In this document: positions 2,885-41,448 of the stretch, piece by piece
Position numbering within the stretch: the stretch's first letter is position 1
How the letters are laid out: each line of letters starts with the position of its first letter
Origin: a virus
Taxonomy: Duplodnaviria > Caudoviricetes
DNA: 64,000 bases
IMG/VR virus record: IMGVR_UViG_3300020576_002312
Span: 1-64,000 of that record
Strand: one strand, 5' to 3'
Translations under genes and position numbers: made by a program
The notes under the pieces: model-generated
Databases searched by the model: none
What the model saw: the letters and a program-made list of their open reading frames with translations, nothing else
Told to the model about the DNA's origin: nothing

Positions 2885-3133
2885 TTAGAAATTGTTTTTA
2901 GATGGGAGTTTACGTTTAGTCTTATAAGCTATAGTATCTCTTCCTATAAGATAGGATTTATAAATTATAGACTTTCCGAGGCGTAATCGTTTATAAACAG
3001 CATCATAGGGGATACCAGGATTCATATTACAGAGGTGTTTCAGGTCATGGTAACATGATATTTCTCCATTTTCCACTAGCACACATACTTTAATCTTCAT
3101 ATTCCGCAAATTTCGTTGTCTAATATTTGCCAA
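2885..3133 (-). CDS. small putative DNA-binding protein (true start may be MKIK at 3100)
   Basis: ORF track; basic HTH-like segment IPYDAVYKRLRLGK; promoter box at 3131-3138. Confidence 0.5.
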   Translation of the reverse strand: MANIRQRNLRNMKIKVCVLVENGEISCYHDLKHLCNMNPGIPYDAVYKRLRLGKSIIYKSYLIGRDTIAYKTKRKLPSKNNF

Positions 3134-3177
3134 AGATAAGAATTTGTTTTATATTTGGGCAAATAAAAGGTAAGACT

Positions 3178-3753
3178 ATGAGAAGAGCACAGGCGTTGGA
3201 TATAAATGAGATAGAGAAATACTACACTATCACCGAGGATGGTATGGTGTGGAGTAAGATCAAGGGGCGGTGGATGAAGCCACGTATGAATATCTATGGG
3301 TATGTATTCTATTCGATAGCTAAGGGTATTGGTGATGGGGGAATACTTGGTGCTTTTGCTCATACGTTAGTTGCCTTGAAGTACATAGGTTCTCCCCCGA
3401 CTGCTAAACATGAGATAGATCATGTAGATGAGAATAAGCAGAACAATCACTGGACTAATCTCAGGTGGGTTACTCATAGTGAGAATATACTTAAGAGTTA
3501 TGAAAGAGGAAGAAGGGGGCATTGGCTTGGGCGTAATAAAGCACCGTTTAGTTTAGAACACAAGATGAAGATGGCAGATGCGAAGAAGAAGAGGGTGGTA
3601 TTTATAAGAGGGGAAGAGAAGGTGGTATTTTCGAGTATAGAGGAAGCGTCTGTGGGGTTAGGTACTTATAGAAAGAAGATATATAGTTCCATTAAAGAGA
3701 ATAAGACGTTCCAAGGCGGTACGCTTAGTTTTCTTGAAGACGTATTTGAATAA
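3178..3753 (+). CDS. HNH homing endonuclease with NUMOD3/NUMOD1-like C-terminal DNA-binding repeats
   Basis: AHTLVALKYI...EIDHVDENKQNNHWTNLRWVTHSEN; SLEHKMKM; FSSIEEAS; promoter box at 3150-3157. Confidence 0.9.
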   Translation: MRRAQALDINEIEKYYTITEDGMVWSKIKGRWMKPRMNIYGYVFYSIAKGIGDGGILGAFAHTLVALKYIGSPPTAKHEIDHVDENKQNNHWTNLRWVTHSENILKSYERGRRGHWLGRNKAPFSLEHKMKMADAKKKRVVFIRGEEKVVFSSIEEASVGLGTYRKKIYSSIKENKTFQGGTLSFLEDVFE

Positions 3754-4513: not shown

Positions 4514-4763
4514 GTTTGATACGGTAATCGTGATATATCCAAACTATTATCCATAGAATAGCAAAGATAACCATGAGAGAGACAAAGAGTAAGAAGCATA
4601 ATAACGCTCCGAGGGGCATGCCTAGTTGGTCTAAGATGATACCAATCACCGCAGGTAACGCAAGGATTAGCGTTGTCAAATATCGCACATGTAGGTCTAT
4701 TCCTGCGGAGAATGTTGCTGTGGAGTAGTAATGAAACCACCACTGTTCTAATCTTCTCATCAT
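4494..4763 (-). CDS. small membrane protein
   Basis: Two hydrophobic helices; ATGA overlap with the upstream glycosyltransferase. Confidence 0.65.
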   Translation of the reverse strand: MMRRLEQWWFHYYSTATFSAGIDLHVRYLTTLILALPAVIGIILDQLGMPLGALLCFLLFVSLMVIFAILWIIVWIYHDYRIKHDNNKA

Positions 4764-5455
4764 TGACTTATCATTTCGTTTATTAGATATTTCTCTCTTG
4801 CGCCTATGTTCCCATAAAGGATATCTTTACTCACCACCGGAAGTCTTTTTGACCAAAACTCAACCCCGTTCATGCTCTGATTGTTCTTTAGATCAACGAG
4901 AAAGCCTTTGATAGTAGTGGACTTCTTCACTAATCCTCTTACGCTATCGAGCATCATCGAGTCTATGGTATTGTCTCTTGCGATAGGCCACACGGGATGG
5001 TCAAGTCTTTCAATGATCTCTTTACGGATAGTACGCCCTGGGCCGAGAACCGTGGTGTGCTGAAAATAATATAGATTACCACTTGTTGCACCATCCATAC
5101 TCAGCATATACAAGTCGTTGAGTCCTACCATGTCGTGAGTGTCCATGAGGTCTTGTATGTCGATAAATGTTTGTGTGGAGATAAGATCATCAGATCCCGT
5201 AAGCATAACACAATCTATCTCGGCTTTCTGACACATGTGTATCATAGAGTTGTTAAATTTAGCCGTGAGAGGTCTATTGGGGTACTCATAGAACTCAATA
5301 TCATACTCTTTACATAGGGGGATAGCGTCTATACTCCCTGAAGTTATACAAGGAATGTTCTCACCCGTTTCTTCACGTAAGCGTTTTACCCCTTCGCAAA
5401 ATATTTTGAAGATAGATAACCTACCGTAGTTTGCCGTGATAAGTCCAACCCTCAT
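4760..5455 (-). CDS. GT-A fold glycosyltransferase-like protein
   Basis: N-terminal beta-strand RVGLITANYGR; PLTAKFN; MLTGSDDLIS; paralogous to 9488-10231. Confidence 0.7.
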   Translation of the reverse strand: MRVGLITANYGRLSIFKIFCEGVKRLREETGENIPCITSGSIDAIPLCKEYDIEFYEYPNRPLTAKFNNSMIHMCQKAEIDCVMLTGSDDLISTQTFIDIQDLMDTHDMVGLNDLYMLSMDGATSGNLYYFQHTTVLGPGRTIRKEIIERLDHPVWPIARDNTIDSMMLDSVRGLVKKSTTIKGFLVDLKNNQSMNGVEFWSKRLPVVSKDILYGNIGAREKYLINEMISQ

Positions 5456-5703
5456 ATTTTATCAATATCAAACCATTCTGTCCAAACAAATACCTTATGT
5501 GGGTTGCCTTTGTGGTCAAATACATCTAATATTTTACTCCACTCAAGATTGCTATCCCTGATATCGTGAAAAGATAATTCTTTGAAGTCACCATAGTACT
5601 CTTTAAGAATATCATTGGCCTTATTACTGTTTGATGCTACCCCTAAAACAAAGGTTTCCTCGGTTTCCGCATCTCTCTCGTGTATAACTAAAACTTGATT
5701 CAT
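5452..5703 (-). CDS. hypothetical protein
   Basis: ORF track; overlaps in operon. Confidence 0.6.
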   Translation of the reverse strand: MNQVLVIHERDAETEETFVLGVASNSNKANDILKEYYGDFKELSFHDIRDSNLEWSKILDVFDHKGNPHKVFVWTEWFDIDKI

Positions 5704-5711
5704 ATTGATTA

Positions 5712-5972
5712 CTATATTTCAAACCCTTGTTCTGTGATTTTAACAGCAATATCATGCTCTATACGCCCCTCAAACTCCTTAGCTATGTCATGACTATAAT
5801 TAGACAAATGATATTCTCTAGCGAATGCCTGAAGATTTTCAAGTAGATTAGCTGTATTAAATACATGATACAGTAGTCTAGCTTCCTGTATTGTATTACA
5901 GGTATAACTAATAGTAAACGGAGTAAAATCTTTACTCTTTCCCTCTTTTGGTGTTTTTGATTTAGATGTCAT
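5712..5972 (-). CDS. hypothetical protein
   Basis: ORF track; promoter box at 5994-6001. Confidence 0.6.
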   Translation of the reverse strand: MTSKSKTPKEGKSKDFTPFTISYTCNTIQEARLLYHVFNTANLLENLQAFAREYHLSNYSHDIAKEFEGRIEHDIAVKITEQGFEI

Positions 5973-6038
5973 ATCGTATTATATTTATTTGACCAAAGAT
6001 AAATCAAATTATCGGCACAAACAAACTTTTGCTGCCAT

Positions 6039-7139
6039 TTATTTGCAGTATTTAACATAAAATAGTTTGGGAAAGAACCCCAACTTCATAGCAATCCAAA
6101 ACAAAGGTTTCCATTTTTTAAAATTATATCCCTTGAAGTCGTGATACGTTGCTCTTGGCATCTTCATAATCACATTAAACTCTCTATCCGATAAGAATAG
6201 TTTATCCCTTACCTCTCTCAGGATTTCATCACTAATGGTGATCGGTATCTTGAGTTCTTCCTTTGCAATCTCTTTGAACTGCTTACCCTCACGTATGAAC
6301 GCTGACTGCTCGATACGTCTCTTGTCAATGCCAAACTTAGTGTAAAGATACCATCCCACAAACTCGGTATAGCGGTTCTCGCAGTGGTGTCCACCATAGT
6401 CTTTCCAATCGTAATATACGGCAAGGTCTTTCTTTGCTTGCTCTTTGTCGTACTTCATGTGGTATAACGGGCGATAGTGTTTAATTCCTTTAAGGGATGC
6501 TATTAACTGACTCTTTAGCGTGAGTAACGGATAATACCTTAGTTTATCTACTATGTATGTTTCATACACATCTTGTAGGTAACGGCTATCCATAAGCGTC
6601 CACCCAATCGGGCAACTGCCCTCAGTTCTGAAGCTATGACCGTTGAAGATACTCTTGCAGTCATATTGCTGTGCTATATCAAGCATCAACCGACCCATTG
6701 CTATGTCGTTGGGTATATCTGCCTCTGATACCGATGCCCATAGGAACGCACGATTGAGAGAGTTGTATTCGTTCATGTTTGGACGTATGCGTACATAAGT
6801 ACAGCCGATCTTCTCTACGAGGTTCTTCATATTTGACTCTGCCTCTGCACCATTCCAACCATTATTAAAATGGACGGCTAGGATGCGTAATCCCCATTTG
6901 TTTGCACTATGAAGTAACCACGATGAGTCACAGCCACCGGAGATACCGATAAGGACATCGTATTTATGCTTACGCCCACGCCTGCGTATCTCGTCAATCA
7001 TTTTTATCAGATCATCCGAACTTTCGGGGTACTGTTCATCGAGTTGGTCGTGGATATCACAAAAATTACATACTCCTTCGTTATTAAGGGTTACACCCTC
7101 TATGTCGTCCGTTAAGAGACAAATGTTACATTCTGCCAT
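6039..7139 (-). CDS. N-acetyl-sugar amidotransferase (WbuX/WbpG-like, PP-loop adenine nucleotide alpha-hydrolase)
   Basis: N-terminal CxxC...CxxC; YDVLIGISGGCDSS PP-loop; AVHFNNGWN; WKDYGGHHCEN. Confidence 0.85.
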   Translation of the reverse strand: MAECNICLLTDDIEGVTLNNEGVCNFCDIHDQLDEQYPESSDDLIKMIDEIRRRGRKHKYDVLIGISGGCDSSWLLHSANKWGLRILAVHFNNGWNGAEAESNMKNLVEKIGCTYVRIRPNMNEYNSLNRAFLWASVSEADIPNDIAMGRLMLDIAQQYDCKSIFNGHSFRTEGSCPIGWTLMDSRYLQDVYETYIVDKLRYYPLLTLKSQLIASLKGIKHYRPLYHMKYDKEQAKKDLAVYYDWKDYGGHHCENRYTEFVGWYLYTKFGIDKRRIEQSAFIREGKQFKEIAKEELKIPITISDEILREVRDKLFLSDREFNVIMKMPRATYHDFKGYNFKKWKPLFWIAMKLGFFPKLFYVKYCK

Positions 7140-7142: not shown

Positions 7143-8477
7143 TTAAAATTTAAGTGTTTGTTGTGTTGCTATAACTACTTCTTCCCTTTCTTCTTCCCAT
7201 GAATCTATTCTTGCCTGTGCTATCTTACAGTAGTCGGATTCTCTTTCTATGCCTATAAAACTAAAGCCTTCTATCTTTGCCCCAATGCCCGTACTACCAC
7301 TCCCCATGTAAGGGTCAAGTATAGTTCCTTTCTTAGGTGTAATCATTCGGCATAGGTAACGCATGAGAGATATGGGTTTGACTGTTGGGTGGTTGTTCTT
7401 TTGGGGGGATGCAGGTTTGTTTTCATAACCCCCATTAGGACTCCGTGGGTCTGTACGGAATGAATTAGCCAACATATTATGTCCATCCTTGTTTTTATCT
7501 TCAAACTCATCACACCCCTTATTTCTTTCGCTCTTTGATGCCTTTGCACAGTAAAAAAAGCGGGAGGCTGAACCGCTATCAGCAAAGCAACTTGTAATTA
7601 AGCCACCTTTTCCACTCCCATATATCCCATTATTTTGACAATCAATAGTGCCCGTGCCTATTGTGGCTTTGCCTGATTTAAGAATGCCTACCTTAGCAAA
7701 TTCAGATTCTACTTCATCACTCCCATCGTGTATTACATTGGCGGGAAAACGACCAATATTATTATTCTCTACAAGGGGCTTTCCAAAGTTATAATTGACA
7801 GGATTTTCTGTGCCTTTGCATCCACCGCTTGTTTTCTTTTGTCCGTTTAAGTCTACCCTACATCCATCAATATTAATTCCCCCCGTACCCCATTTAAGTA
7901 CATTGGTGGCTACTGTTTTCTCTGAGAGAGGCTTCCTTGCAAGAGTCCATAATTCCATTGCTGGTTTAAGAGATGTCCCTAATCCTTCGTATTCAGAATT
8001 GCCCTTAGTTAGTTCGAATGACTTACCACTTCCATCCATATACCCAATACCAGTATCTCCTTTATCGTGGTTATTAAGTTTACTCGGCTGTGCCCCACTA
8101 CCATTATTAGAAATCCCAATACTTATACGTTCATTGCCAGTCATTACATCAATAGCCTTGCCTATATTCAGTGACTTAGGGAATCCACTGCCATATATCC
8201 AAGCAATAACATCCCTTATCTCAAACCCCGCATCTTCTATATTAACAGTCATGCGATGTTGTGTGCGAGTACCACAGGCACAAAGGATATGACCACCTGG
8301 TTTTAGCACACGAAACACTTCTTCCCATACTTCTACTTTTGGAACGTCATAATCCCAATGCTTCCCCATAAAAGATATGCCGTAAGGCGGATCAGTAACA
8401 ACGGAATCAACGCTATTGTCGTCTAATGTTTTTAGGGCAACAAGACAGTCATTATTTATGATGGATATATTATTCAT
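7143..8477 (-). CDS. DNA N6-adenine/N4-cytosine methyltransferase (beta class)
   Basis: VVTDPPYG; HPTVKP; ILDPYMGSGSTG. Confidence 0.92.
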   Translation of the reverse strand: MNNISIINNDCLVALKTLDDNSVDSVVTDPPYGISFMGKHWDYDVPKVEVWEEVFRVLKPGGHILCACGTRTQHRMTVNIEDAGFEIRDVIAWIYGSGFPKSLNIGKAIDVMTGNERISIGISNNGSGAQPSKLNNHDKGDTGIGYMDGSGKSFELTKGNSEYEGLGTSLKPAMELWTLARKPLSEKTVATNVLKWGTGGINIDGCRVDLNGQKKTSGGCKGTENPVNYNFGKPLVENNNIGRFPANVIHDGSDEVESEFAKVGILKSGKATIGTGTIDCQNNGIYGSGKGGLITSCFADSGSASRFFYCAKASKSERNKGCDEFEDKNKDGHNMLANSFRTDPRSPNGGYENKPASPQKNNHPTVKPISLMRYLCRMITPKKGTILDPYMGSGSTGIGAKIEGFSFIGIERESDYCKIAQARIDSWEEEREEVVIATQQTLKF

Positions 8478-9044
8478 CTATTTTTTAGTTCCGTAAATAC
8501 AAATAAAATCAAACTCTCCTACTAATTTAGCATCTAGGATATTGATACACTGACTATACCTTTCCACGGCATCCTCTAACTCAGGGAAAAACCTTACGTG
8601 TTGTTCATGCTCTTGTTCGTACTCGCAGGGTAGCGAGATAAAAACTACTCGTCCCTTGGGTATCTTGTTAAGCAATTCAAGGTCATTATCTACATGCTCA
8701 AGTATCTGATTGAAGCATATAGCATCGTAATCCCCATCACTAATAACGTCTGTATCAAAAGCATCAATCACAAAGATTGCGTTGTTGGGGTTTCGTCTTG
8801 TAGCCTCTGCCACGGCAACACTGCTTATGTCAATCCCAATAGAGTAAATCACTCTTTTAGAGGAGTTAAGTCTTTCTATTAAGTGTCCAAAGCCACAACC
8901 CACATCAAGGACTATACCCTCTGCTCTCTGTGCAATCCACTCATAGATAGGTTGCCAATCCGTGATGTGATGGTTATAGGTATTACTTGGGTCTTCAAGT
9001 ATTGCTTGCCAGTCTTTGTTATAGTCGTCTGCGGTAAGGGTCAT
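8478..9044 (-). CDS. class I SAM-dependent methyltransferase (small-molecule/glycan type)
   Basis: VLDVGCGFG motif I; QILEHV motif; no DPPY/NPPY catalytic motif. Confidence 0.85.
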   Translation of the reverse strand: MTLTADDYNKDWQAILEDPSNTYNHHITDWQPIYEWIAQRAEGIVLDVGCGFGHLIERLNSSKRVIYSIGIDISSVAVAEATRRNPNNAIFVIDAFDTDVISDGDYDAICFNQILEHVDNDLELLNKIPKGRVVFISLPCEYEQEHEQHVRFFPELEDAVERYSQCINILDAKLVGEFDFICIYGTKK

Positions 9045-9047: not shown

Positions 9048-9491
9048 CTATGCAGTTATAACAGTATCAAAAACATTACCGATAATAACGCAGTCATCAA
9101 GAATAATTGAATCTATGTCAGGACGAGAAGGTATTTCCCATCCATATACATCAGAGCAACATCCACAATTAGAGACCATTTTGCTTTCAATAATAAAAGG
9201 AGTCCTTTTAAATTGACATTGCATTATATCACCCTCATAAATATCTTTACCGTTCTTGTCGTGGAGTCCGGTGAATTGTTCCACTGATTCGGGATAAACC
9301 TCACATGTATTTATTGGTACGGGTAAATTCCAATCTGACATCCCATCAAAAAGAATAAGTGCTTTCGTATTTTGTTTACGTTGTTCTTCGTTGGCAATAC
9401 AAAGGCTCACCTCTTGATGAAGATGAAAACTGCCATAAACCCATTGGTTGTTATCTATTCGTTTCCCACGAAATTTTATTTCTCTCATCAT
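9048..9491 (-). CDS. YopX family protein
   Basis: REIKFRGK...QFTGLHDKNGKDIYEGDI...IIGNVFD. Confidence 0.92.
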   Translation of the reverse strand: MMREIKFRGKRIDNNQWVYGSFHLHQEVSLCIANEEQRKQNTKALILFDGMSDWNLPVPINTCEVYPESVEQFTGLHDKNGKDIYEGDIMQCQFKRTPFIIESKMVSNCGCCSDVYGWEIPSRPDIDSIILDDCVIIGNVFDTVITA

Positions 9492-10231
9492 CGTTTGTTT
9501 TTATGAAATTCATATACTTCTTCAAAGCCCCACTTGGCTATCCACGCATCGGTGTTGTAGATATAGTCCGATGTGGTGTAATTCATTTCCCTCGCAAAGT
9601 TATGTTTGTTACACCATTCGTCACAGCTTAGGCTAAGGGACTGTACCTCATCTGAGGTTATTGCTTTGATCTTTCCGTTAAGAGATAGCACTCTCTGGTG
9701 CATTGAATAATCCATTGAGTTGTCTAGCTTTGGGTCAAAGGGCTGATAGTCTAACTTCTCAAGCATCTCTTTACGGATAAGCCTACCAATGCCTATTGCC
9801 TCTCCGTTGCGCTTACTCTTGATGTCATATCCACCCCAATTACCTATCTGTAAATCTCCGTGAATAGTATCGTAGCCTCTCACATGTACCATATTGAAGT
9901 CAACCTTACCCACCATATCGTACTCGTTTAAGTACGGAGTTAAGTACTCAAGCCAGTTATTAGAAAGCCAATCAGAACTACCAACAAACAGACAAGCATC
10001 GGGATTATACATGCGTGATGCGATGAAAGCGGTGTTCCACTTCGCACCGAGAGGTTTATTCTCATGATAGATGAACGTACCCCCTGCCTTGACGATAGCG
10101 TACTCCTCATCGTTGGTATCTGCAACGCAAATTACCCGATAACATCCATTCTTTTCAAGCAATCTCTTGATGGTAAGATGCACGAGGGGTAAACGTCCCC
10201 TTACAGGAATACAAGCTACAACTCTCATCAT
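9488..10231 (-). CDS. GT-A fold glycosyltransferase-like protein (start MMRVVA)
   Basis: VVACIPVRGR; KPLGAKWN; FVGSSDWLS; ORF-track start at 10432 is probably too far upstream. Confidence 0.72.
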   Translation of the reverse strand: MMRVVACIPVRGRLPLVHLTIKRLLEKNGCYRVICVADTNDEEYAIVKAGGTFIYHENKPLGAKWNTAFIASRMYNPDACLFVGSSDWLSNNWLEYLTPYLNEYDMVGKVDFNMVHVRGYDTIHGDLQIGNWGGYDIKSKRNGEAIGIGRLIRKEMLEKLDYQPFDPKLDNSMDYSMHQRVLSLNGKIKAITSDEVQSLSLSCDEWCNKHNFAREMNYTTSDYIYNTDAWIAKWGFEEVYEFHKNKR

Positions 10232-10335
10232 TTTATAATAAAAATGTGTGCTAAACCGTAAATAACTATCGCACCTAAAAGCACAAGAACAAAGTAATCC
10301 CAAAGATTCTGAAAGCGGTCTGCTGTTGTTGCCAT
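10228..10335 (-). CDS. 35-aa single-TM peptide coupled to the glycosyltransferase
   Basis: MATTADRFQNLWDYFVLVLLGAIVIYGLAHIFIIK; stop TGA overlaps ATG of GT; promoter box at 10356-10363. Confidence 0.6.
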   Translation of the reverse strand: MATTADRFQNLWDYFVLVLLGAIVIYGLAHIFIIK

Positions 10336-10401
10336 AACTGATTGATTTAATAAGACAAATGTAAAAAATATAAACGAGACTTCCAAATCTTTTTTGTATA
10401 T

Positions 10402-10710
10402 TTGTATGAACGAAAACAGAAAAATATGTCATATAAGATCAACAACACAAAACTTCTTGTCGAGGCTGTACCAGAAGTGGTAAAACAAACCCCAAGCGGT
10501 ATTTTTATCCCAGAAACAATCCAACATAAAAAATCATCTTTGAAGTCTGTAATTTTGATAGCAGGCAAAGGCACTTCCGAGATTGAGATGATTCATAAAG
10601 AGGGAGATACCATTCTGCATAACCCTTACGAGGGGCAGGAGTTTGATTGGGAAAATAAAAAGGTTAAACTGATAGATCAGTCTTCTGTTCTTCTGAACCT
10701 AGGTCAGTAG
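10402..10710 (+). CDS. groES: GroES-like co-chaperonin
   Basis: KQTPSGIFIP mobile loop; VILIAGKG; EGDTIL; own promoter box at 10397-10404. Confidence 0.8.
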   Translation: MYERKQKNMSYKINNTKLLVEAVPEVVKQTPSGIFIPETIQHKKSSLKSVILIAGKGTSEIEMIHKEGDTILHNPYEGQEFDWENKKVKLIDQSSVLLNLGQ

Positions 10711-10981
10711 TAGGGGTAGGTTTCACACCCATCTTCTCTGCATAGTCTTTGTTGATAGCGTACATCTGCGCTTCAAGGTTAACTAATTCGTTAACTAACT
10801 TAACTGATTTATTAAAGAGTACCTGAAGGTCTTTGTCGGGGTGAGTATTGTCCTTTAAAAGAGTAATACTTTCCTCGGTCAACCCCAATATACGAGGGTT
10901 ATTGAGTATCTTAGAGTTTCTTAATTGACCAATCCTTTCAATGATTTCCTTGCCTTCCGTACGCCTACCTTGTCTGTTCAT
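10664..10981 (-). CDS. hypothetical protein
   Basis: ORF track; in operon. Confidence 0.6.
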   Translation of the reverse strand: MNRQGRRTEGKEIIERIGQLRNSKILNNPRILGLTEESITLLKDNTHPDKDLQVLFNKSVKLVNELVNLEAQMYAINKDYAEKMGVKPTPTTDLGSEEQKTDLSV

Positions 10982-10986: not shown

Positions 10987-11508
10987 TTAAAATAAGTATT
11001 GTTGTTTATTATTACTAGCAAGTTCTTGCGCTCCTTGCAAGGATTTAAGTTTTTTATTTGTTGTTCTTTTAAAATTAGGCGGATCCAAAACGAAACAAGC
11101 TATATGTCTTCCTGTTCCCTTGCCTTCGTTCATGTCTTCTGTTGCCAGCCATTTAACATCTCTTAGGTTTCTTACTTTAGCCCCCGCCTCTATTAACATT
11201 AATACCCATTTATCTATTGGGTAAACCATTACAACCCGTTTCCCTTTTTTATTTTCAGCGATACACTTTCTTGCCCATGCCGTTGCACCCTTACGCTTAC
11301 CATCCGAAGCATCAAGGTATGACCCAAATGGAGGATTAACATAATTAGACTCGCCCCACTCTGCCCTTAGACCATCATAATCATCAGGTTTGGGAAATGG
11401 ACATGGATCATAATCAAAGTCAAATTCTATATTTAACTGATCGTATAGGGGCGGAGGGGTTAACCAATAATGTTTTCCGTCCTTGCTATTACCATTCTCA
11501 AAAGCCAT
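10987..11508 (-). CDS. phage Dam-like DNA N6-adenine methyltransferase
   Basis: YWLTPPPLY..FDYDPCP; YVNPPF catalytic motif. Confidence 0.8.
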   Translation of the reverse strand: MAFENGNSKDGKHYWLTPPPLYDQLNIEFDFDYDPCPFPKPDDYDGLRAEWGESNYVNPPFGSYLDASDGKRKGATAWARKCIAENKKGKRVVMVYPIDKWVLMLIEAGAKVRNLRDVKWLATEDMNEGKGTGRHIACFVLDPPNFKRTTNKKLKSLQGAQELASNNKQQYLF

Positions 11509-12557
11509 TAATAATCCTTTCTTATTCCAAATTTCTTACAAAGCCAGTTTATATCCCGTGTAAAGAGCAACTTATTTCTTTCTCGGATTTCTAAAACGTA
11601 AGGCATATAATACTTAATTAATCTTCTTCCCTCACTTGGGTTTTTCACTCTCAATTCAAGGGCAATAAGCATTGTCATTACCTTATCCATGAGTCTTTGT
11701 GCTTCGGCTTTGCGGAGCATGGTGAAGGCGATGAAGAATTTATTCCACCAAAAGTAGTCTCCCCGTCCGTTGTTACTCAAAAGCACCCCATCCTCGGTAA
11801 CAAACTTATGAAATATATGTAAGGTTTCCATGTCCCTTATAACGTGGCACTCTCCCCCCGACAACCAATACTTTAGGCTTATCCAAGGCTCAAGCCCCCC
11901 GAAGTAGTGATGACCGACCATCTTTTTTTCGGGCAATGTATCCCATCCATTTACATGCTGATACCAAGTCTTATTGGTTACATAACACGCCCCATAGATA
12001 ATAGGTACTTCGATGATAGGTTCTCGTGGTATGCGTTTAATCCACTTGCAATCGAATAGTCCCACGTATGCTTTTGGTTGATTTATCCTTGAAGGAGAAT
12101 CTTTCGGCAGTTCATCTCCCGTAGCGTAGATAAGAAGTTCTGCTCCATATCTTTTAACACTATCGGGTATTGGGTTAGTGGGATCTAAATAATCCGGTGA
12201 ACCCTCAAGACAACAACTACAAGCAATGCCTTGGGGATGATTAGTAGCATAGTCAAGTGCTTGATTAAACCAACTACTATTCTTCATCATAACGTCCCCG
12301 CCCATAAGGACAATCGTTTCATATTTAGCAAGTGAAACACCCACATCGAAAGCATGTCCCATACCCCGTTGAATAGGTATTTTGATAATACGTAGGTTTG
12401 GATAGTCGCTTTCACTGACCATTATCGGTTCGGTACTCGCATCGTCAATGAGAAGTATCTCAAAAGTAGACAGGTCTTGCCCTTTGATTAAATGGTTAAG
12501 ACAATGATCGAGAAATCTCTCGTTGAAATTAGCAATGATTACTGATATATTTTTCAT
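11508..12557 (-). CDS. GT2/GT27-like glycosyltransferase resembling polypeptide GalNAc-transferase
   Basis: ISVIIANFNE; LLIDDAST; PIIYGACYV; FGGLEPWISLKYWLSGGEC...HIFH. Confidence 0.8.
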   Translation of the reverse strand: MKNISVIIANFNERFLDHCLNHLIKGQDLSTFEILLIDDASTEPIMVSESDYPNLRIIKIPIQRGMGHAFDVGVSLAKYETIVLMGGDVMMKNSSWFNQALDYATNHPQGIACSCCLEGSPDYLDPTNPIPDSVKRYGAELLIYATGDELPKDSPSRINQPKAYVGLFDCKWIKRIPREPIIEVPIIYGACYVTNKTWYQHVNGWDTLPEKKMVGHHYFGGLEPWISLKYWLSGGECHVIRDMETLHIFHKFVTEDGVLLSNNGRGDYFWWNKFFIAFTMLRKAEAQRLMDKVMTMLIALELRVKNPSEGRRLIKYYMPYVLEIRERNKLLFTRDINWLCKKFGIRKDY

Positions 12558-13303
12558 AATACAAATTCAATGTCGCACATCTGAACAGTTAGATACTGCT
12601 TATCTCCGTCAAAAGAGAGATTCCAAATTGATCTTTCGAGGAAAAAAACATTTACGTTAGGGTCTATCGTAACTAAATCCCCCACTTCAAGGTTAGGAAT
12701 ATCTGATCTCTTTGGATTCTGATATAACTTATTGGGTTTACCCACGTACTTAACTATCCCCCGTTTCTTGTCAATGTCTTTGTCGAGTAAATCAAGCTCA
12801 GAAATAGCTTCTTTTTGAACAAGTTCAAGGATTGCGTACCCATTGGTACATATCACATCCCATGTTTCCTTACCATCAAACTTACTTATCCAACGGTGTC
12901 TTTTTGCTACAAGAATATCCTCGTATTTAATGACTGAATATACATCATCTTCAACAAGTATCTGTGGGCAGTTCTTGAGAGCAAGAGGGTGAGAATAGGC
13001 AATGTCGCCCATCTGTGTATCTACATCGCAAGACCAGGACATTGTGTTGTCAATATCTTTCCTGTTAAAATATAATCTATCCACCTGTTTAACTATCTCT
13101 CCCCGCACTATCGTTACATCGGCAATGTGAGAAGTATCGCTCTCTCCGTACGTCACATCCTCGTTGAACCCGATAATGATACCTGCCTTAGTCTTGAGTT
13201 CTTCTTTCTTTGGCATTAAAAGGTGAACGTAGTTGCTCGGATAACTTACCGTAGCCTCATCGTACTCTTTTCGGGTTAATCGTATTTGTAAATTCTCTGA
13301 CAT
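12554..13303 (-). CDS. tandem GroES-like domain protein
   Basis: Two GroES-like units: LKTKAGIIIG...RGEIV...MGDIAY and RGIVKYVGKP...LEVGDLV. Confidence 0.7.
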   Translation of the reverse strand: MSENLQIRLTRKEYDEATVSYPSNYVHLLMPKKEELKTKAGIIIGFNEDVTYGESDTSHIADVTIVRGEIVKQVDRLYFNRKDIDNTMSWSCDVDTQMGDIAYSHPLALKNCPQILVEDDVYSVIKYEDILVAKRHRWISKFDGKETWDVICTNGYAILELVQKEAISELDLLDKDIDKKRGIVKYVGKPNKLYQNPKRSDIPNLEVGDLVTIDPNVNVFFLERSIWNLSFDGDKQYLTVQMCDIEFVL

Positions 13304-13576: not shown

Positions 13577-14125
13577 TCATTCAGTAAAATCATATACTCC
13601 AATTTTATATCCATTCTTTTCTGATTGTTTTAAATAATCCAGAATGAAATTTAAATGTTTTTCTTTTGTATCAAGAACGTCTCCCACATTATTGACACTA
13701 AATAGACCAGTTACTTCATTAACACTAATTAGTTTATGAATCTGTGAATGAATTCGCTTGTCTAAAATAAAAAAATCTTCAAGTAAATGATAATTCCAAT
13801 GATGTATTTCTTCACTTGATAATATTTTTATTTTTTGGGACATCTTTTTTCTTAACCCCTGATAAGCAGTTCCAACCCAAAATAACGTTTTTTTTCTTTC
13901 ATTCCACGGGCTATTAAGATAACCTAATCTGTGATATTTTTCTCTTCCCCTTTCACGTTCCTGTTCCATCCAGTCTTCATCTTGTGATTTTATAAGATAA
14001 TTTTGTTTTACATCTTTTTTATTACACTCTTTACATTTATTAAGATGTCCATCACCCATTTGTGGGTGTTTATAAAACTCACTTAATTCCTTTTCAACCT
14101 TACATTTAAAACAAACCTTTCTCAT
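13577..14125 (-). CDS. HNH-like endonuclease with N-terminal zinc finger
   Basis: [16 protein letters not shown]...KCKEC; EIHHWNY...HSQIH. Confidence 0.75.
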
Positions 14126-14960: not shown

Positions 14961-15317
14961 TTATTTTTTCCCATTAGTATTAAGCCTAGGTTTTAAATAA
15001 CGAATAAGCTCTTTTTCAAGAGAAACATAATTATCTGTTAAGTAATAAACAAAAGTAAAGGATATATCATTATTTCTATGTGCAAAAATATACTTAGTTA
15101 GCTTATGCTTGGTTACATATATTCTATGCGCAATATTTTTAGATGACCCAACATAAATAACTGAAGCAACTTCTTTTATTTGGTCAATTTCAATACAAAA
15201 ATAAACTCCGCTTTCATTGGGTAATCCTAATCCTGCACTTGAATCCAATTTAATATTAAATTTATTTTGAATATCAGGATAGAATTGTTTATAAAAATCT
15301 CTTAAAAATATTAGCAT
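14961..15317 (-). CDS. GIY-YIG endonuclease
   Basis: SGVYF...IYVGSS.NI..R...H...EKELIRYLKPRLN. Confidence 0.8.
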   Translation of the reverse strand: MLIFLRDFYKQFYPDIQNKFNIKLDSSAGLGLPNESGVYFCIEIDQIKEVASVIYVGSSKNIAHRIYVTKHKLTKYIFAHRNNDISFTFVYYLTDNYVSLEKELIRYLKPRLNTNGKK

Positions 15318-28233: not shown

Positions 28234-28521
28234 ATGGCATCAGCTAAAGACAGGTGGGCAATCCTAAATAACATAATCGCTAAAGCAGGGGGCATAGAAA
28301 ACGTGAACCTGCATAGTGAACTTGCAAAAAGCGAGGCAGTACTTAACATGCACAAGGCAAATACCGATATGAGTGCCTTGCAGAGTTCAACTCCCCCACT
28401 AAGTTCCACACCAACTCCCCCACAATCGCAAAATTCACTCGGAGATACTGCAAATCCATTGTCAACTCAACCGATGTCTCCTGAGATGGGACAAAGTACC
28501 AACGGACAACCACCAATGTAA
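28234..28521 (+). CDS. small protein with Ser/Thr/Pro-rich tail
   Basis: ORF track; SSTPPLSSTPTPPQSQ; followed by terminator. Confidence 0.65.
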   Translation: MASAKDRWAILNNIIAKAGGIENVNLHSELAKSEAVLNMHKANTDMSALQSSTPPLSSTPTPPQSQNSLGDTANPLSTQPMSPEMGQSTNGQPPM

Positions 28522-29289: not shown

Positions 29290-30414
29290 ATGGCAGGACT
29301 TGGAGATATTTTAGGCAAGGGAACGGCAACGCCCCCTGTAGAACCAACAGAACCGACAACACCGGTTACTCCCGCAGGTGAACCAACAACACCAACGACA
29401 CCTCCGGTAGAACCGAAAAAAGATACAACTCATCCACCCGCAACGACAACATCGTGGGTTGATGAGATTAACAAGGCGTACAAAACAGAGTTTAAGACTC
29501 CCGAAGATTTTGGTAAGTACTTTGAAAGATCAAAGAAGGTCGATGAGTATGAAAGTAAATCTAAGGAGTTTGAGACAAAAGAAAAGCAGTATAAAGAGCA
29601 AGTTGAAACCTTGCAGAGTTCATTGAATCCATTGAGCTATTTTTCAACACCAGAGGCTTACGTAGCCGAGCAGCTAAGAAGGCAATACCCCGATAAGAGT
29701 CCTTCTGTATTACAGGAGATTGTAATCAGAGACACAAAAGGAGTAGCCGACATAGAAGTGCTTGTAAAAAACAAACTACTTGAGACTCCTGACCTCATAG
29801 GCGGGGAAGCGGGAGCGAGAGAATTAGTTTACAGCGAACTTGGTATAGACGGGGACACTTTAGAGACAGAGTGGACAAACCTGACTAAGAACAAGATCAA
29901 AACACAAGCCAAAGATATACGTAAGTCGTGGGATGAACTTAAATCTAAAGTCGAGTTACCGAAGGTACAGACCGCAGAGGAGATTGCCCTTTCACGGACA
30001 AACGCACTTCAAGCAAAACTTGAATCAGCAAAACCCCTGATAGAGCAGTATTCAAAGTTCGATCACTTTACAGAAGAAATTGAAGACGGTAAAACATTCG
30101 ATTTTATAGTGCCGGATGAGTATAAACAATCACTACCTGAAATGATAAAGGCAGCGATTGAGGCAGGGATAGAACCAACCGCAGAGAACATGGCTGTACT
30201 CCATGAGCAGAAAGAGGCTTTACTCCTTCGTAGGAACTTCAAGCAGATATATAAAAGTATCGAGGCTGATGTCGAGACGAGGTTGAAAGCTGAAGAAGAT
30301 AAACGAAACGGTAACATTCCACCCGCTAATACTACAAAGGCTACGGAGTCAGAGTTAGAACGTCAGAAATTCAGTAAAGAACATGGTATTGGAAAATTGC
30401 TTGACAAAAAATAA
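29290..30414 (+). CDS. capsid scaffolding protein
   Basis: Directly upstream of MCP; acidic coiled coil; P/T-rich N-terminus; promoter TACCTTTG at 29251. Confidence 0.7.
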   Translation: MAGLGDILGKGTATPPVEPTEPTTPVTPAGEPTTPTTPPVEPKKDTTHPPATTTSWVDEINKAYKTEFKTPEDFGKYFERSKKVDEYESKSKEFETKEKQYKEQVETLQSSLNPLSYFSTPEAYVAEQLRRQYPDKSPSVLQEIVIRDTKGVADIEVLVKNKLLETPDLIGGEAGARELVYSELGIDGDTLETEWTNLTKNKIKTQAKDIRKSWDELKSKVELPKVQTAEEIALSRTNALQAKLESAKPLIEQYSKFDHFTEEIEDGKTFDFIVPDEYKQSLPEMIKAAIEAGIEPTAENMAVLHEQKEALLLRRNFKQIYKSIEADVETRLKAEEDKRNGNIPPANTTKATESELERQKFSKEHGIGKLLDKK

Positions 30415-36171: not shown

Positions 36172-39100
36172 ATGAGTGATATAAAACAGGATATTACCTT
36201 TATCGGGTCGGGACTCGATTCTGATACGTCAAATAAGCTAATGGCATTGGGCGATAGCCCTGTTAGGTTACACGTAGCTGTGACCGATGATAGTCTTCAG
36301 GGAGAACTTGTAACCATGCTTGGTACAAAACTTGTATCATACCAAGGTGGTCTTGCGTTATCGAGGGCTTACTTCGCACATGGGGGTTACTACAACGAGT
36401 TACAGAGGACGGTGTATTATTTCATCTTCAGCCAGCCATTTTTAGATACAAGCGTTCCTTCCCCGACTGAATATATCTACGACAACAGGGTACTTGCATA
36501 CAGGGAAGATACAGGGGTAATTGATACGATATTCATTGATAGAAAAAACTATCTTGAGTTAGATCCCGAAAAACCACTCATACGGCCATGTATGATTAAG
36601 GATTGGCTGTTTATCAATCCGGTGACGAGTCAACCAAAAATGATTGATGTTACAAGGGCTTATAACTATACTAACTTTCCGGCATGGGATTCCACAAAAG
36701 GAGATTATGTTTACGGTGATAGAGTAACTTTCTTTGGCGGTCTATTTGTAGTTATTGCCACGCCAACAGCAGGGCAGTCGCCATCAACGCACCCTACTAA
36801 ATGGAGAAGAATAGGGGATAGTTATCAGAGTGAGTCGAGTACTATTGGCGATGAGCTTTCCGTGGCTTTTAACATGATTAAAACTCCCCCGATAGACGTT
36901 ATTAAAACTGCCTTCGGGAGCGACCCAAGCGTAAGTTCAAATCAGGTTAAGGGTAGGGTATTTAGGTTTTGTCACAGGTATCAGTATTTTGATGATTCAT
37001 ATTCGGTTTACTCTGCTTATACGGGACTTAGTTTACCCGTGGACGATGAATTATATTCGGGAGAGGTTATATACTCGACTACATTCAATAACTATATAGC
37101 ACTCACCTTTAGTCTTTACTCGGCATCCCTTGTAAAGAACATAGAGTTATTCTTTCAGGAGTTAGATGGTTCATGGTATAGGTTAGCAGTCATAAAAAGA
37201 CAAGATCAGACCTTGCTTAATGATGTAAACTATACACATAATTTCTACAATAACGAGTCGTATATTGCAGTTCCAAATAGTGAGGTAGTTAAAGTTCAGG
37301 ATGCAGTACCAAGGGAAGCAGGGTCACTTGAGATAATCAATGAGAATATTCTTACACTAGGGAAATGCACAGAGGGATTTGATAACCTTGAAAAAGATGT
37401 TATTGATGTTACTCTTACCCCTGAGATAAAAGATATAAAGCAGTTCACACAAGAAGATACCTTTAAAAGAAACAATATTCCTGGTGATTTAAGTTATAGT
37501 AACTCTTATGATGAACAACTTGGAGTAAATTTTTACTATACCATACTTGACGTAGGAACATGGTTTGCAGGGAGTGGTATAATAGCAACAGATGTTTATA
37601 AGGCTACTCTTGATGGGTTAACCCAATATAAAACACTCGGAGCAGGAGATGTTGATACGGCTGAACATTTAGCTAATGCAATAGCATCGTTATTTCAGAA
37701 CGCAACGGTATATAATGGTGGTGGGGGGATAGTTAATGTACAAATACTTGACTATTATAAGTTTCCTGAACTAACGCTATCGAGATTCTATTCTCCCGAT
37801 GCGCTTGTTACAGGCACGACAACACTTACTAAGTTCAAGGGGGTAAAAGAGGGTGCGTATCATCCATATTGTCTATTCTATTATGACGGACAAATGAGGC
37901 GTAGTTCAGCGCAGGTAAATAGCGATATGGTTACTTACGTGCCATCCGTAAATGAGTACTCACCTCCCGTTACCACAACTAACCATAAGTGGGATATTAA
38001 TTGGGCAGTCAATCACGAGCCTCCAACATGGGCTAAATATTGGAAATGGGGTTATGCAGGGAATAGAAGATGTTCTTATTTCGTTCAGTATATTATTAGT
38101 AAGGTAGAATTATCTGTCGTAGCACCCGATACGCCCGATGTAAATAATACGGTTAAGGTTAATATCACTCCATTACAGACGCTACGCACAACATCAGAGG
38201 TTGGGTGGAACTGTTTCCCAAATTCTATTATTCCTCAATATCAATTTACCGAGGGTGATAGGATAAGGTTTATAACAGAACTTACAGACCCAACACTCGC
38301 AGGCACTCTCTTAGGGGATGTTCTTAATGGTATATACGATTTTGAGATACTAAAATTCGATGAGACCACGAATATGCTCTATGTTCAGTCTTTTGACTTT
38401 GGGACGGCAAACATAGGGGTAAATAGCCTCGTAGAGATTTATACTCCAAGGAAAACGACAGAAGTAGAGTTCTATTATGAGTTCAGTGACCTTTTACCTA
38501 TCGTGACTGATATTAATGGCAAAAGTGCTCATGGGGCAGTTAATTCAGCCAATAATCAGGTAGTAGGTGTATCTCCCGCAACAGGTGTATTTGAGAGTGG
38601 GGATATTTATCATATCTATCGTACGCCAAGTAAGCCATTATCCGAGGATATAAGTGAAACCTTTATGGGGGCTTTCCACGAGTCAATGTGGTGGAGTGAT
38701 TTTTACAAGAGTGACGATTGGAATAGAGGCAAGATAGGTATTGAGAATCCCATAGGCGAGGTAACGACAAACCTCGTGAGGTATTCAAATCCTTATTTTC
38801 AAGGGACACAGATAAACGGACTCACAACTTTTGAAGAAGAAAGTAAGAAAGAGATAAACGATGTATTTGGTGACATACAGGCACTCGTAGAGGTAGGTGA
38901 TACATTAAAAGTATATCAGACTAAGAAAGCAAGTGCAATACTCATAGGTAAGACAGAGTACACAGATTCATCGGGACAACAGACAACGCCCGAACTTACT
39001 ACAAGGACATTGGGATCTATTCGTTACCCTGAAAGTAACTATGGTACGATATTCCCTGAGTCTATTGTAAAAAATAACAGGTACGTTTACGGCTTTGACG

Positions 39101-41007
39101 TTCATAATGGCGTGGTGTGGAGAGATTCCCCTTCAGGGATATTCCCAATAAGCGGTAGATATGCAGAGGCAGGGGGTGATGTAGATTACAAGATGCAGAC
39201 CTATTTCAAGAATAAGTCAAAGGCATTAATGGAGTCGGGCGTTGACCATATCAAGTGTATAGGTGTTTGGGACGGGGAGAATAAGATGTACGTTCTGTCT
39301 ATCAAAGATACCGTCAATGAGGAGAATAATGATACTATCATGTTCCACGAGCCAAGTAACAGGTGGATTACATACGCTGACTTCACTAAGACACCGACAG
39401 GGGGATATAACCAACTACTTGAACTTACATGGGAAGTTGTTAAGGGTTTTGAGAATGGCATAGGTCTTTCGTTTGATTATACAACAAGATTTGCGGTGTT
39501 TGATATAGGTAGCGGGCTTGGTACGTCAGCCAACGCATCGGTAGTACCGCCAAGTGACGGGTTGGGATTAAGAACCTATATTCCGCTTCCGACAATCACT
39601 TGCACAGCAGGGGTAACACCCGATGAGATACCTATGGTGATGACGATACCTGACCCTGTAATACATATATCATCCTTATCGGTAAGCGAAGATACAATGC
39701 TTTGGGATGCAGATCAGAGTGGTGTGGGTGATAAGATAACTACGATGCTATCTAGTATCAATAATCCTTATATAGCAGCTACCTTTATCCTTGAAAGTAA
39801 GCCTTCGTGGATTACGATACTTGAAGAAGGCAGAGCTATCTTTATCAATAACGGAGATACCGTATCACTTACCACTAATCTTTGGGTTTATCCGACACTT
39901 GACAATACGGGAGCACAGAGAGCAGGACAGATTATCTTTAAGGATAGTTTCGGTAACAGAGCAGTAGTCTATTGCACACAGCAAATAGCACTTGTTAATC
40001 CGATAGTTATTCTCGCAATTAATCCCGCAGACACATCAGACCTTGGTATTGGCATGGGAAGTAGTGGTAGTAATTCGGTGGGTACAACAAGAGTGAACCT
40101 AACTGACTTAAATCTCTACAATCCTGGTCGGGCAAATGGAGCAACCTTTGAAGTATTCTACGCAATAACAAGGGATGGGGTTAATGATGCTTCGGGTTCA
40201 TTCGATTATAGAAATGGTGTTATAACAACTACATTCGTTTTACTTAACTCAATATCAACTTCGGGTGAGCAAATTATAGTGTATTTTAGCAGTGCATCAC
40301 ACTCAATACCTATTGATCCTGTAAATGCGAGTGTTCTCGCTGACCCGATAAATATGGTTATCACTATTCCAAAACCGACAATCGTTGTGTCGTGGATTAG
40401 CTTTACCAATACCACGATGACATGGCCTGCAAGTAATAATTCTTACGCAAGCAAGCAGAGTGCGGTAGCCACGTTCCATTCAACCGTGAGTGCGTTCTTA
40501 CAATCATTTCCTTCGTGGATTACTATAATAAATGAATCACACGGGGGTACAATGTTTGTAGGTGACTTAGTAAGAGATGGCGATACTTTGAGTATATACC
40601 CAAATACTACCAATGCTCTCTATGTTCCCAAGGTGGGTACTATCAACTTCAATGACTCGGTGGGTAATATAACTCATATCAACGTCACTCACCAAGCTAC
40701 ATTACTACCGCCAAGCGTTACCATACAGATGCACCCAAGCGATAGGTCAGGTACTACACTCTCACTTATCTCAGGAACGGGCAGTGCAGGCAGTAGTAAT
40801 ATTAGTATTACCTTTACACCGAACTACCCGCATGTAGCTTACGGCAGACCGATAGATTTCAATTATGAGATATGGAAAGACGGAGTGCCTGTTGGTAGTG
40901 GTAGTATGTTTAGTCTGTTAAATCAGAGGGCAAATACAAGAGCATTGACGATGACAAGTCCCGCAGAGGCAGGGCAAACGATAATAATATATTTACAAGA
41001 ACCTTAA
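36172..41007 (+). CDS. tail muzzle/stabilisation protein N-terminal part fused to Ig/BACON-like repeat extension
   Basis: FCHRYQYFDDSYS; LTLGKCTEGF; HPYCLFYYD; FGDIQAL; YGFDVHNG; TIMFHEPSNRW, then repeats. Confidence 0.8.
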   Translation: MSDIKQDITFIGSGLDSDTSNKLMALGDSPVRLHVAVTDDSLQGELVTMLGTKLVSYQGGLALSRAYFAHGGYYNELQRTVYYFIFSQPFLDTSVPSPTEYIYDNRVLAYREDTGVIDTIFIDRKNYLELDPEKPLIRPCMIKDWLFINPVTSQPKMIDVTRAYNYTNFPAWDSTKGDYVYGDRVTFFGGLFVVIATPTAGQSPSTHPTKWRRIGDSYQSESSTIGDELSVAFNMIKTPPIDVIKTAFGSDPSVSSNQVKGRVFRFCHRYQYFDDSYSVYSAYTGLSLPVDDELYSGEVIYSTTFNNYIALTFSLYSASLVKNIELFFQELDGSWYRLAVIKRQDQTLLNDVNYTHNFYNNESYIAVPNSEVVKVQDAVPREAGSLEIINENILTLGKCTEGFDNLEKDVIDVTLTPEIKDIKQFTQEDTFKRNNIPGDLSYSNSYDEQLGVNFYYTILDVGTWFAGSGIIATDVYKATLDGLTQYKTLGAGDVDTAEHLANAIASLFQNATVYNGGGGIVNVQILDYYKFPELTLSRFYSPDALVTGTTTLTKFKGVKEGAYHPYCLFYYDGQMRRSSAQVNSDMVTYVPSVNEYSPPVTTTNHKWDINWAVNHEPPTWAKYWKWGYAGNRRCSYFVQYIISKVELSVVAPDTPDVNNTVKVNITPLQTLRTTSEVGWNCFPNSIIPQYQFTEGDRIRFITELTDPTLAGTLLGDVLNGIYDFEILKFDETTNMLYVQSFDFGTANIGVNSLVEIYTPRKTTEVEFYYEFSDLLPIVTDINGKSAHGAVNSANNQVVGVSPATGVFESGDIYHIYRTPSKPLSEDISETFMGAFHESMWWSDFYKSDDWNRGKIGIENPIGEVTTNLVRYSNPYFQGTQINGLTTFEEESKKEINDVFGDIQALVEVGDTLKVYQTKKASAILIGKTEYTDSSGQQTTPELTTRTLGSIRYPESNYGTIFPESIVKNNRYVYGFDVHNGVVWRDSPSGIFPISGRYAEAGGDVDYKMQTYFKNKSKALMESGVDHIKCIGVWDGENKMYVLSIKDTVNEENNDTIMFHEPSNRWITYADFTKTPTGGYNQLLELTWEVVKGFENGIGLSFDYTTRFAVFDIGSGLGTSANASVVPPSDGLGLRTYIPLPTITCTAGVTPDEIPMVMTIPDPVIHISSLSVSEDTMLWDADQSGVGDKITTMLSSINNPYIAATFILESKPSWITILEEGRAIFINNGDTVSLTTNLWVYPTLDNTGAQRAGQIIFKDSFGNRAVVYCTQQIALVNPIVILAINPADTSDLGIGMGSSGSNSVGTTRVNLTDLNLYNPGRANGATFEVFYAITRDGVNDASGSFDYRNGVITTTFVLLNSISTSGEQIIVYFSSASHSIPIDPVNASVLADPINMVITIPKPTIVVSWISFTNTTMTWPASNNSYASKQSAVATFHSTVSAFLQSFPSWITIINESHGGTMFVGDLVRDGDTLSIYPNTTNALYVPKVGTINFNDSVGNITHINVTHQATLLPPSVTIQMHPSDRSGTTLSLISGTGSAGSSNISITFTPNYPHVAYGRPIDFNYEIWKDGVPVGSGSMFSLLNQRANTRALTMTSPAEAGQTIIIYLQEP

Positions 41008-41439: not shown

Positions 41440-41448
41440 TAAAGGGTT

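Follow-up and report, generated by a model that had tools for sequence, protein, structure and literature searches.

Can a bacteriophage carry out the chemistry with which mucin-type O-glycosylation begins? To our knowledge, the enzymes that begin mucin-type O-glycans are regarded as having arisen in eukaryotes, and the only phages in which glycosylation of the virion has so far been documented are mycobacteriophages, where unrelated enzymes do the work. The question is raised by one gene of a Caudoviricetes virus in IMG/VR (record IMGVR_UViG_3300020576_002312), of which we analyzed the first 64 kb (positions 1 to 64,000; hereafter, the window); the whole record is linear and 78,186 bp long, with a completeness estimate of 88%. 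An original prediction made from the letters alone had placed at 11508-12557 a glycosyltransferase (GT) carrying the Gal/GalNAc-T motif of eukaryotic-type polypeptide GalNAc-transferases (ppGalNAc-Ts, family GT27), and had proposed that it primes a protein O-glycosylation pathway. The open reading frame (ORF) has exactly these coordinates, on the minus strand, and encodes 349 amino acids (aa), among which we found all of the motif strings that had been singled out (PIIYGACYVTNKTWYQHVNGWD, F219-GGLEPWISLKYWLSGG-E236 and H247-IFH); G189 and Y192 within PIIYGACYVTNKTWYQHVNGWD are invariant across the family.

The likeness to ppGalNAc-Ts extends well beyond what Pfam detects, which is only the generic GT2 N-terminal half: PF00535 (Glycos_transf_2) matches residues 5-120 (E 1.8e-12; 47.9 bits, above the cut-off of 23.3), as it matches all 40 aligned family members, and a search of PHROGs assigned the protein to no family. 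When the single sequence was compared with all PDB sequences, the best match was human GalNAc-T10 (E 4.5e-6). A profile of 40 family sequences reached E 1e-34 with profile positions 3-290 of 322 aligned, and its best 16 matches were all GT27 enzymes, whereas ordinary GT2 enzymes aligned over the first ~100 residues only. Identity to the ppGalNAc-Ts is ~14-18%.

Built on the family alignment, AlphaFold2 (AF2) gave a model with a predicted local distance difference test score (pLDDT) of 93.5 and a predicted TM-score (pTM) of 0.93, and the best 50 Foldseek matches to this model were all ppGalNAc-Ts. In an all-against-all search independent of Foldseek, the kind of structural comparison by which the original prediction was to be judged, the model likewise grouped with ppGalNAc-Ts (Toxoplasma GalNAc-T3, Z 27.8; mouse GalNAc-T1, Z 27.6) and not with generic GT2-type folds (Z at most 18.6). 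The whole catalytic domain of the GT27 enzymes (human GalNAc-T1, T2, T4, T10 and T12 and Toxoplasma GalNAc-T3) superposes on it, with 283-286 residues aligned at 2.5-2.8 Å and Z about 27.7. The next fold in line is K4 chondroitin polymerase, at Z 18.6, with generic GT2s at no more than 17.5; B4GALNT1 scores 16.9, TarP 14.7, beta4GalT/GT7 12.3 and SunS 11.9. Although the sugar-acting enzymes among these (K4 chondroitin polymerase, B4GALNT1 and beta4GalT/GT7) share the GT-A fold and a WGGE-type motif with the phage protein, they match its fold much more weakly, and the family profile aligns with only the N-terminal half of K4 chondroitin polymerase. Judged by these profiles and by the predicted model, the ppGalNAc-T likeness is real, specific and far above chance.

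It does not make the phage protein a classical ppGalNAc-T. The ppGalNAc-Ts are its closest solved structures, but the family to which it belongs is a viral lineage; the label "eukaryotic-type" is too strong, since the nearest kin are phage and some bacterial proteins and since the lectin domain and anchor are missing. The protein ends with the catalytic domain: no Ricin_B match was found in it, in the 40 aligned members or in ten long members that we scanned, which carry extra S-adenosylmethionine (SAM) methyltransferase or further GT2 domains, never ricin. There is no transmembrane segment (the maximum 19-residue hydropathy is 1.03), and strand 1 begins at residue 4, so the protein is predicted to be soluble, without an N-terminal membrane anchor or stem. 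Lacking a lectin domain, a membrane anchor and the D-x-H motif, this cytoplasmic, phage-encoded enzyme differs plainly from the GT27 enzymes that it resembles. The GT60 polypeptide alpha-GlcNAc-transferases (Gnt1 type, PF11397; cytoplasmic/Golgi) offer a second comparison, being lectin-less relatives of GT27 that act on protein. Weak PF11397 matches (E 2e-7 to 6e-4) occurred in 3 of the 40 family members and at the N-terminus of member P0043; the protein studied here had no PF11397 match, and no GT60 entry was prominent among its structural matches.

The active site resembles that of the ppGalNAc-Ts in having the DD, an altered Gal/GalNAc-T-like motif, an invariant His that aligns with a metal ligand, and a probably flexible segment at the position of the catalytic loop. 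In mouse GALNT1, the metal ligands are Asp209, His211 and His344 (PMC4202792). The original prediction had noted that the canonical D-x-H is replaced here by GGD, and HMMER indeed pairs G86-G87-D88 with it, setting 'lmGGDvmm' opposite 'fLDSHc' of human GalNAc-T10 (2d7i); farther along, 'fgglepwislkywlsgg...lHifhkfv' lies opposite 'wggeqyeisfkvwmcgg...gHiyrkyv'. From FGGLEPWISLKYWLSGG to H247 the alignment runs column for column with WGGENxExS..W.CGG and the His, with Leu for the first Glu of WGGE(N), Glu for the following Asn/Gln, and, just after the His ligand, His for Arg. The Glu in question, E223, is the acidic residue at the fifth position of the motif and is nearly invariant. Beta4GalT1 has its catalytic base at the equivalent position. 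Because E223 occupies the site at which ppGalNAc-Ts have Asn or Gln and beta4GalT1 has its base, a retaining mechanism cannot be assumed from the sequence. Residues 251-270 probably correspond to the flexible catalytic loop of ppGalNAc-Ts, an identity suggested by their position in the model relative to H247.

To place this variant active site within the family, we aligned 154 representatives to the family hidden Markov model (HMM). Distant members show what we call Type I, the ppGalNAc-T pattern itself, with D-x-H, WGx[D/S/E]E and GHxFR; the protein in the window belongs to Type II, with [G/A]-x-D, WGxLEP and GHIF[K/G/H/N]. D39 and H247 are conserved in both, and the change comprises three coordinated positions (DxH to GxD, E/D to L, and R to K/G/H/N). 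In a maximum-likelihood tree of 117 near-full-length members, Type II sequences fell into one clade (63/63, support 0.86) with no Type I sequence inside it, which argues that the switch from Type I to Type II occurred once and was then retained; the Type II site is kept down to ~22-25% identity. Since this clade is monophyletic and conserved, as expected under selection, the phage enzyme is probably active, with altered metal geometry and/or an altered donor, rather than a relic. We considered and rejected the idea that it is a pseudo-enzyme decayed for want of D-x-H: the GxD clade is monophyletic and conserved, and the variants without ligands are separate from it. In those variants (P0069, P0112, P0135, P0149 and the gene at 5344-6381 of locus L027/L028), D-x-H is replaced by N-x-R and the invariant His by Asn (GN[I/V/L]YR); having lost all metal ligands, they could be pseudo-enzymes or metal-independent forms.

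The family is large and almost entirely viral. An exhaustive search of 1.8 billion representatives returned 1,934 relatives, 19 of them with E below 1e-30; the closest kin are proteins of uncultured phages, with some bacterial relatives, and 78 related loci were recovered from IMG/VR. Among 185,579 species-representative cellular genomes, Type I patterns matched 4 small contigs of metagenome-assembled genomes (MAGs) and Type II patterns matched nothing; the patterns are narrow, so this indicates rarity without proving it. In the ESM Atlas, the protein was placed among Uroviricota clusters, together with some bacterial GT2/Glyco_transf_7C clusters and one chordate ppGalNAc-T cluster at TM-scores of ~0.75-0.8. 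A Bacteroidota cluster there contains 528-aa proteins with the architecture of the phage enzyme, 36% of which have a LanC-like domain, a fusion that hints at glycosylated ribosomal peptides. Neither tblastn with the enzyme and three relatives nor megablast with the region found any relative among 50,697 deposited phage genomes, and there is therefore no cultured phage to serve as a handle. Within its own lineage the gene is carried by all three genomes that are at least 90% complete (3/3), which makes it a core gene rather than a sporadic gain. The terminase of the phage shows a distant relationship (~25% identity) to terminases from podophages of Flavobacterium, Cellulophaga and Tenacibaculum, and the phage's host is therefore likely to be a member of the Bacteroidota.

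What the enzyme might act on is suggested by the genes beside its relatives. The head module of L010/L011 contains a gene for a Type II GT fused to a methyltransferase; an SU10-type capsid gene precedes it by two ORFs, and a gap of 13 nt separates it from the upstream gene of a 193-aa protein that ends in TDTTTTTTPTPTPTPTPTPTE (a T6(PT)6 tail). In L017 the preceding gene, whose stop the GT start overlaps, encodes an 864-aa protein containing three mucin-like linkers; the L077 GT gene overlaps the end of one for a T7-type tail tubular protein B (35% identity, E 7e-45) with a C-terminal extension rich in Thr and Pro. The GT of a 204-kb phage (L029/L052) comes after a protein in which ~90 consecutive Thr join an N-terminal region that looks like an FN3 domain to a C-terminal domain; the proteins that precede the GT in the L065-L072 group have poly-Thr/Ser tracts flanked on either side by a folded-looking region. 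To put a number on this association, we made greedy gene calls on 79 loci (1,304 genes, 31 of them flagged as Thr-rich) and de-duplicated the GTs into 39 clusters at 60% identity. A Thr-rich gene stood at distance 1 in 7 of these 39 lineages, against 1.9 expected (p 2.5e-4 to 3.5e-4), and the enrichment held for thresholds of 12-16 (p at most 0.004). All seven Thr-rich neighbors are upstream of the GT; six share its strand and either overlap it or end less than 65 nt away, and the seven occur with both active-site types. The family is thus genetically linked, in 7/39 lineages, to Thr-rich genes, that of the structural tail tubular protein B among them.

Fusions and operons add a second comparative association. 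Fusion of a Type II GT to a class I SAM methyltransferase recurs (P0026, P0032, P0049 and L010/L011), and the methyltransferase domain of the L010/L011 fusions shares 31-33% identity with the separate methyltransferase of the window (8478-9044). The order GT, 248-aa ORF, methyltransferase recurs in L017 and in L008/L063. Taken together, the Thr-rich upstream genes and the GT-methyltransferase fusions lend independent comparative support, drawn from sequence, to a protein acceptor for this family. An unannotated ORF of ~248 aa lies directly downstream of Type II GTs in several loci (L017 11098-11844; L008 10944-11708; L021 5332-6102; L023; L025) and is likely to be a further component of the glycan pathway. 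A related 83-kb phage (L015; IMGVR_UViG_3300025009_000896) has a second Type II copy at 10046-10930, directly after homologs of the tail-module genes found at 36172-53698 of the window.

In the window itself, the gene overlaps both of its neighbors, at its start with the stop of the upstream gene (ATGA) and at its stop with the start of the downstream one (TAATG); it is therefore part of a tightly packed operon. The positions of the features discussed here are collected in Table 1.

Table 1. Features of the glycosyltransferase gene, its cluster and candidate acceptor tracts in the window
Feature	Position	Strand	Basis
GT27-like (ppGalNAc-T-like) GT-A glycosyltransferase, 349 aa, predicted soluble, Type II active site	11508..12557	(-)	ORF, PF00535, PDB sequence and profile matches, AF2, fold matches
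D38-D39, nucleotide-binding 'DD' after strand 2 (D39 nearly invariant)	12441..12446	(-)	Family alignments; pairs with GalNAc-T10 'VDD'
G86-G87-D88, at the D-x-H metal-binding position	12294..12302	(-)	HMMER alignment to 2d7i; family table
F219-G235, Gal/GalNAc-T-like motif FGGLEPWISLKYWLSGG; G220, E223, S227, K229, G234 and G235 conserved	11853..11903	(-)	Alignments
H247, invariant His, aligned with the third ppGalNAc-T metal ligand	11817..11819	(-)	Alignment with the His of T10 'GHIYRKYV'
Residues 251-270, sole lower-confidence segment of the model (pLDDT 65-77)	11748..11807	(-)	AF2 block pLDDT
Tandem GroES/Cpn10-like protein, 249 aa; stop overlaps the GT start	12554..13303	(-)	42% identity to L002 6168-6914
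Probable GT-A glycosyltransferase, paralog of 4760-5455	9488..10228	(-)	Weak PF00535, E 0.005 over 3-166/168; paralogy E 2e-14
Class I SAM methyltransferase, small-molecule/sugar type	8478..9044	(-)	Pfam, NCBIfam
WbuX-type N-acetyl-sugar amidotransferase (PP-loop)	6039..7139	(-)	TIGR03573, E 7.8e-53
Probable small GT-A paralog	4760..5455	(-)	Homologs near the GT27-like gene in L004, L016, L018/19, L060
Candidate acceptor: Thr/Pro-rich tract (TATPPVEPTEPTTPVTPAGEPTTPTTPPVEPKKDTTHPPATTT), N-terminus of scaffold-position protein (ORF 29209/29290-30414)	29323..29451	(+)	P/T-rich N-terminus kept in homologs from related GT-positive phages
Candidate acceptor: 95-aa ORF just after the portal gene, C-terminal half rich in Ser/Thr/Pro/Gln	28381..28518	(+)	Composition

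Several genes of the cluster look suited to building a glycan. The WbuX-type protein aligns essentially end to end with TIGR03573 (1-325 against 1-343/344, full-length), at 180 bits, below the 203-bit cut-off. The best matches of ORF 9488-10432 are GT-A glycosyltransferases (Z 9-11.4); because its AF2 model is poor (pLDDT 48), we give this GT-A assignment only moderate weight. The first 68 codons of that ORF (MTYFSVFVHTNIQ...) look non-coding, and both its homologs and the paralog at 4760-5455 start at the position of M69 (MRVVAC...), so the gene probably runs from M69, over 9488-10228. The phage was found to have neither an epimerase nor a nucleotidyltransferase gene and must for that reason draw on nucleotide-sugars of the host. 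As for acceptors, the window's Thr/Pro tracts, TATPPVEPTEPTTPVTPAGEPTTPTTPP among them, belong to proteins of the head module, and homologs of the scaffold-position protein in related GT-positive phages retain a P/T-rich N-terminus, its composition being conserved.

Other genes in the same arm have less obvious roles. A tandem GroES/Cpn10-like gene immediately precedes the GT in the window, L004, L016, L018/19 and L060, and the homologous gene at 6168-6914 of L002 matches PF00166 (E 3.9e-7). A 102-aa ORF at 10402-10710 (+), GroES-like by eye (no Pfam scan was made of it), converges on the cluster from the opposite strand, so that one phage has two co-chaperonin-like genes, one of them translationally coupled to the GT. 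Interleaved with the glycan genes are a YopX gene and two DNA N6/N4-adenine/cytosine methyltransferase genes, at 7143-8477 (-) and 10987-11508 (-), CcrM-like and Dam-like; a homolog of the Dam-like gene (71% identity) also lies near the GT in L021. Three homing-endonuclease-like genes, two HNH and one GIY-YIG, occupy 3127-3753 (+), 13577-14125 (-) and 14961-15317 (-).

On balance, and with the scales tipped only a little past even, we favor an active, cytoplasmic, metal-dependent GT-A enzyme that glycosylates Ser/Thr in Thr/Pro-rich tracts of phage proteins, with neighboring gene products tailoring the glycan. The fold, family, active-site anatomy, gene neighborhood and comparative associations are what the analysis shows; from these we infer that the acceptor is a protein, as well as the donor, the sequence of steps and the biological benefit. 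An enzyme with the whole GT27 catalytic-domain architecture, from a large and almost entirely viral family, would take a host-made nucleotide-sugar, possibly of the HexNAc (N-acetylhexosamine) type, and transfer the sugar late in infection to Ser/Thr in unstructured Thr/Pro-rich tracts of phage proteins; the probable GT-A paralogs, the SAM methyltransferase and the WbuX amidotransferase encoded nearby would then extend and tailor the glycan, and the benefit could be, for example, the shielding or stabilization of virion surfaces.

A number of observations weigh against this picture. Two more genes of the cluster probably encode GT-A enzymes, and priming could fall to one or the other of these instead. 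The GGD metal site, the Leu at the position equivalent to E334 and the lost Arg after H247 all depart from ppGalNAc-Ts, and the donor and chemistry may therefore differ. Within the window no Thr-rich gene adjoins the GT: the candidate tracts are ~17 kb away, and the best of them lies in a scaffold-position protein, which is an odd target. We found no GT-negative relatives with which to check for co-variation, all homologs recovered being in GT-positive or fragmentary records. The criterion for Thr-rich genes was fixed post hoc, and the independently retrieved second batch taken alone (3/14 against 1.15, p 0.08) gives no more than a trend. Finally, bacterial GT2/7C clusters are about as close structurally as the ppGalNAc-Ts in the Atlas.

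The alternative nearest to the favored one keeps the phage protein as acceptor and makes the GT an elongating enzyme, with one of the small GT-A paralogs or a host enzyme doing the priming. The two additional GT-A genes would allow this, and E223, at the position of the beta4GalT1 base, fits the inverting sugar-to-sugar transferases that have the Gal/GalNAc-T motif; K4 chondroitin polymerase, moreover, takes second place among the fold matches. We nonetheless think it unlikely, as many family members are the only GT beside a Thr-rich gene (L010, L053, L077) and the fold is much nearer to peptide-acting GT27 than to sugar-acting GT2 and GT7 (Z 27.7 versus 18.6 and 12.3). Modification of a host envelope glycan (lipopolysaccharide, capsule or the glycans of host glycoproteins), blocking superinfection or altering the receptor in the manner of seroconverting phage glycosyltransferases, seems to us quite unlikely. 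Lipid-linked glycans are indeed common acceptors of GT2-type enzymes, the classical setting of WbuX-type amidotransferases is the O-antigen, and homologs bear the automatic JGI name "glycosyltransferase involved in cell wall biosynthesis"; yet the protein has no membrane segment, the family is nearly absent from cellular genomes (the 4 small MAG contigs among 185,579 representatives, by the patterns used), several lineages have the GT inside virion structural modules beside Thr-rich proteins, and here it is a core gene of an apparently lytic lineage (no search for integrase or lysogeny genes was made).

Acceptors of other kinds fare worse. A host protein, a ribosomally made peptide or a small molecule is brought to mind by the Bacteroidota cluster with LanC-like domains, which is structurally close but a lead only, and by the peptide S-glycosyltransferase SunS, itself a GT-A enzyme; but we noticed no genes for ribosomally synthesized and post-translationally modified peptides (RiPPs) near the GT, and its recurrent neighbors encode large phage proteins, of which at least one belongs to the virion, so we rate such acceptors as improbable. 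Somewhat more improbable still is glycosylation of modified bases in phage DNA as an anti-restriction hypermodification. DNA methyltransferase genes (10987-11508 and 7143-8477) do flank the GT in the replication-side arm, and phage GT-A enzymes that act on 5-hydroxymethylcytosine (5hmC) are known (Pyle et al., bioRxiv 10.1101/2023.12.21.572611), which like ours are phage-encoded and abundant in IMG/VR. Those enzymes, however, have R...DDD...EDY/F motifs, resemble TarP and JGT most closely in structure, and cluster with 5mYOX, thymidylate synthase (ThyS) and C5-methyltransferase (C5-MT) genes (bioRxiv 10.1101/2023.12.21.572611), whereas our protein has GGD instead of DDD and matches TarP only at Z 14.7. 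In the 78-kb record, 88% complete as it is, there is no thymidylate-synthase-like gene and no TET/JBP match (the latter search had no positive control), the flanking methyltransferases are of the N6/N4 type, and the family associates with Thr-rich proteins and small-molecule methyltransferases.

If the enzyme does glycosylate Ser/Thr of phage proteins, as we favor, the logic would be familiar. Glycosyltransferases of mycobacteriophages (Che8 gp110, Corndog gp38 and Myrna) glycosylate the phages' own capsid and tail-tube subunits at C-terminal extensions, according to Freeman et al. (2023) as relayed in PMC12363180 and PMC12619734; likewise, T/P-tailed structural proteins adjoin members of the phage GT27-like family. 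Those enzymes have no detectable sequence relationship to ours, since the tblastn searches with our GT and three relatives drew a blank among the 50,697 deposited phage genomes, and the hosts belong to another phylum. Our literature search found no report on phage GT27-like enzymes or on virion glycosylation in crAss-like phages.

A much bolder proposal, which we regard as doubtful, is that a large, essentially virus-restricted clade of lectin-less ppGalNAc-T-like enzymes performs a cytoplasmic "mucin-type" O-glycosylation of poly-Thr/Pro linkers and tails on the virions of crAss-like, T7-like and jumbo phages. Type I relatives of the phage enzyme retain the D-x-H and GHxFR of the GT27 enzymes; under this proposal that D-x-H branch would be the nearest kin, in the prokaryotic world, of the eukaryotic GT27/GT60 initiators, and mucin-initiating chemistry would have been invented in phages or exchanged with them. 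The three-position switch in the active site is in any case a natural experiment in the metal and donor specificity of GT-A enzymes. Should protein glycosylation by this family prove true, virion glycosylation would extend to Bacteroidota-type (crAss-like) and other phages, with a bearing on how stable phages are, how they adhere to mucus and how immune systems recognize them, in the gut and in aquatic settings; the family would supply compact, soluble, lectin-free peptide glycosyltransferases for glycoengineering, and it would offer a concrete lineage of prokaryotic viruses in which the origin of GT27 and GT60 could be tested.

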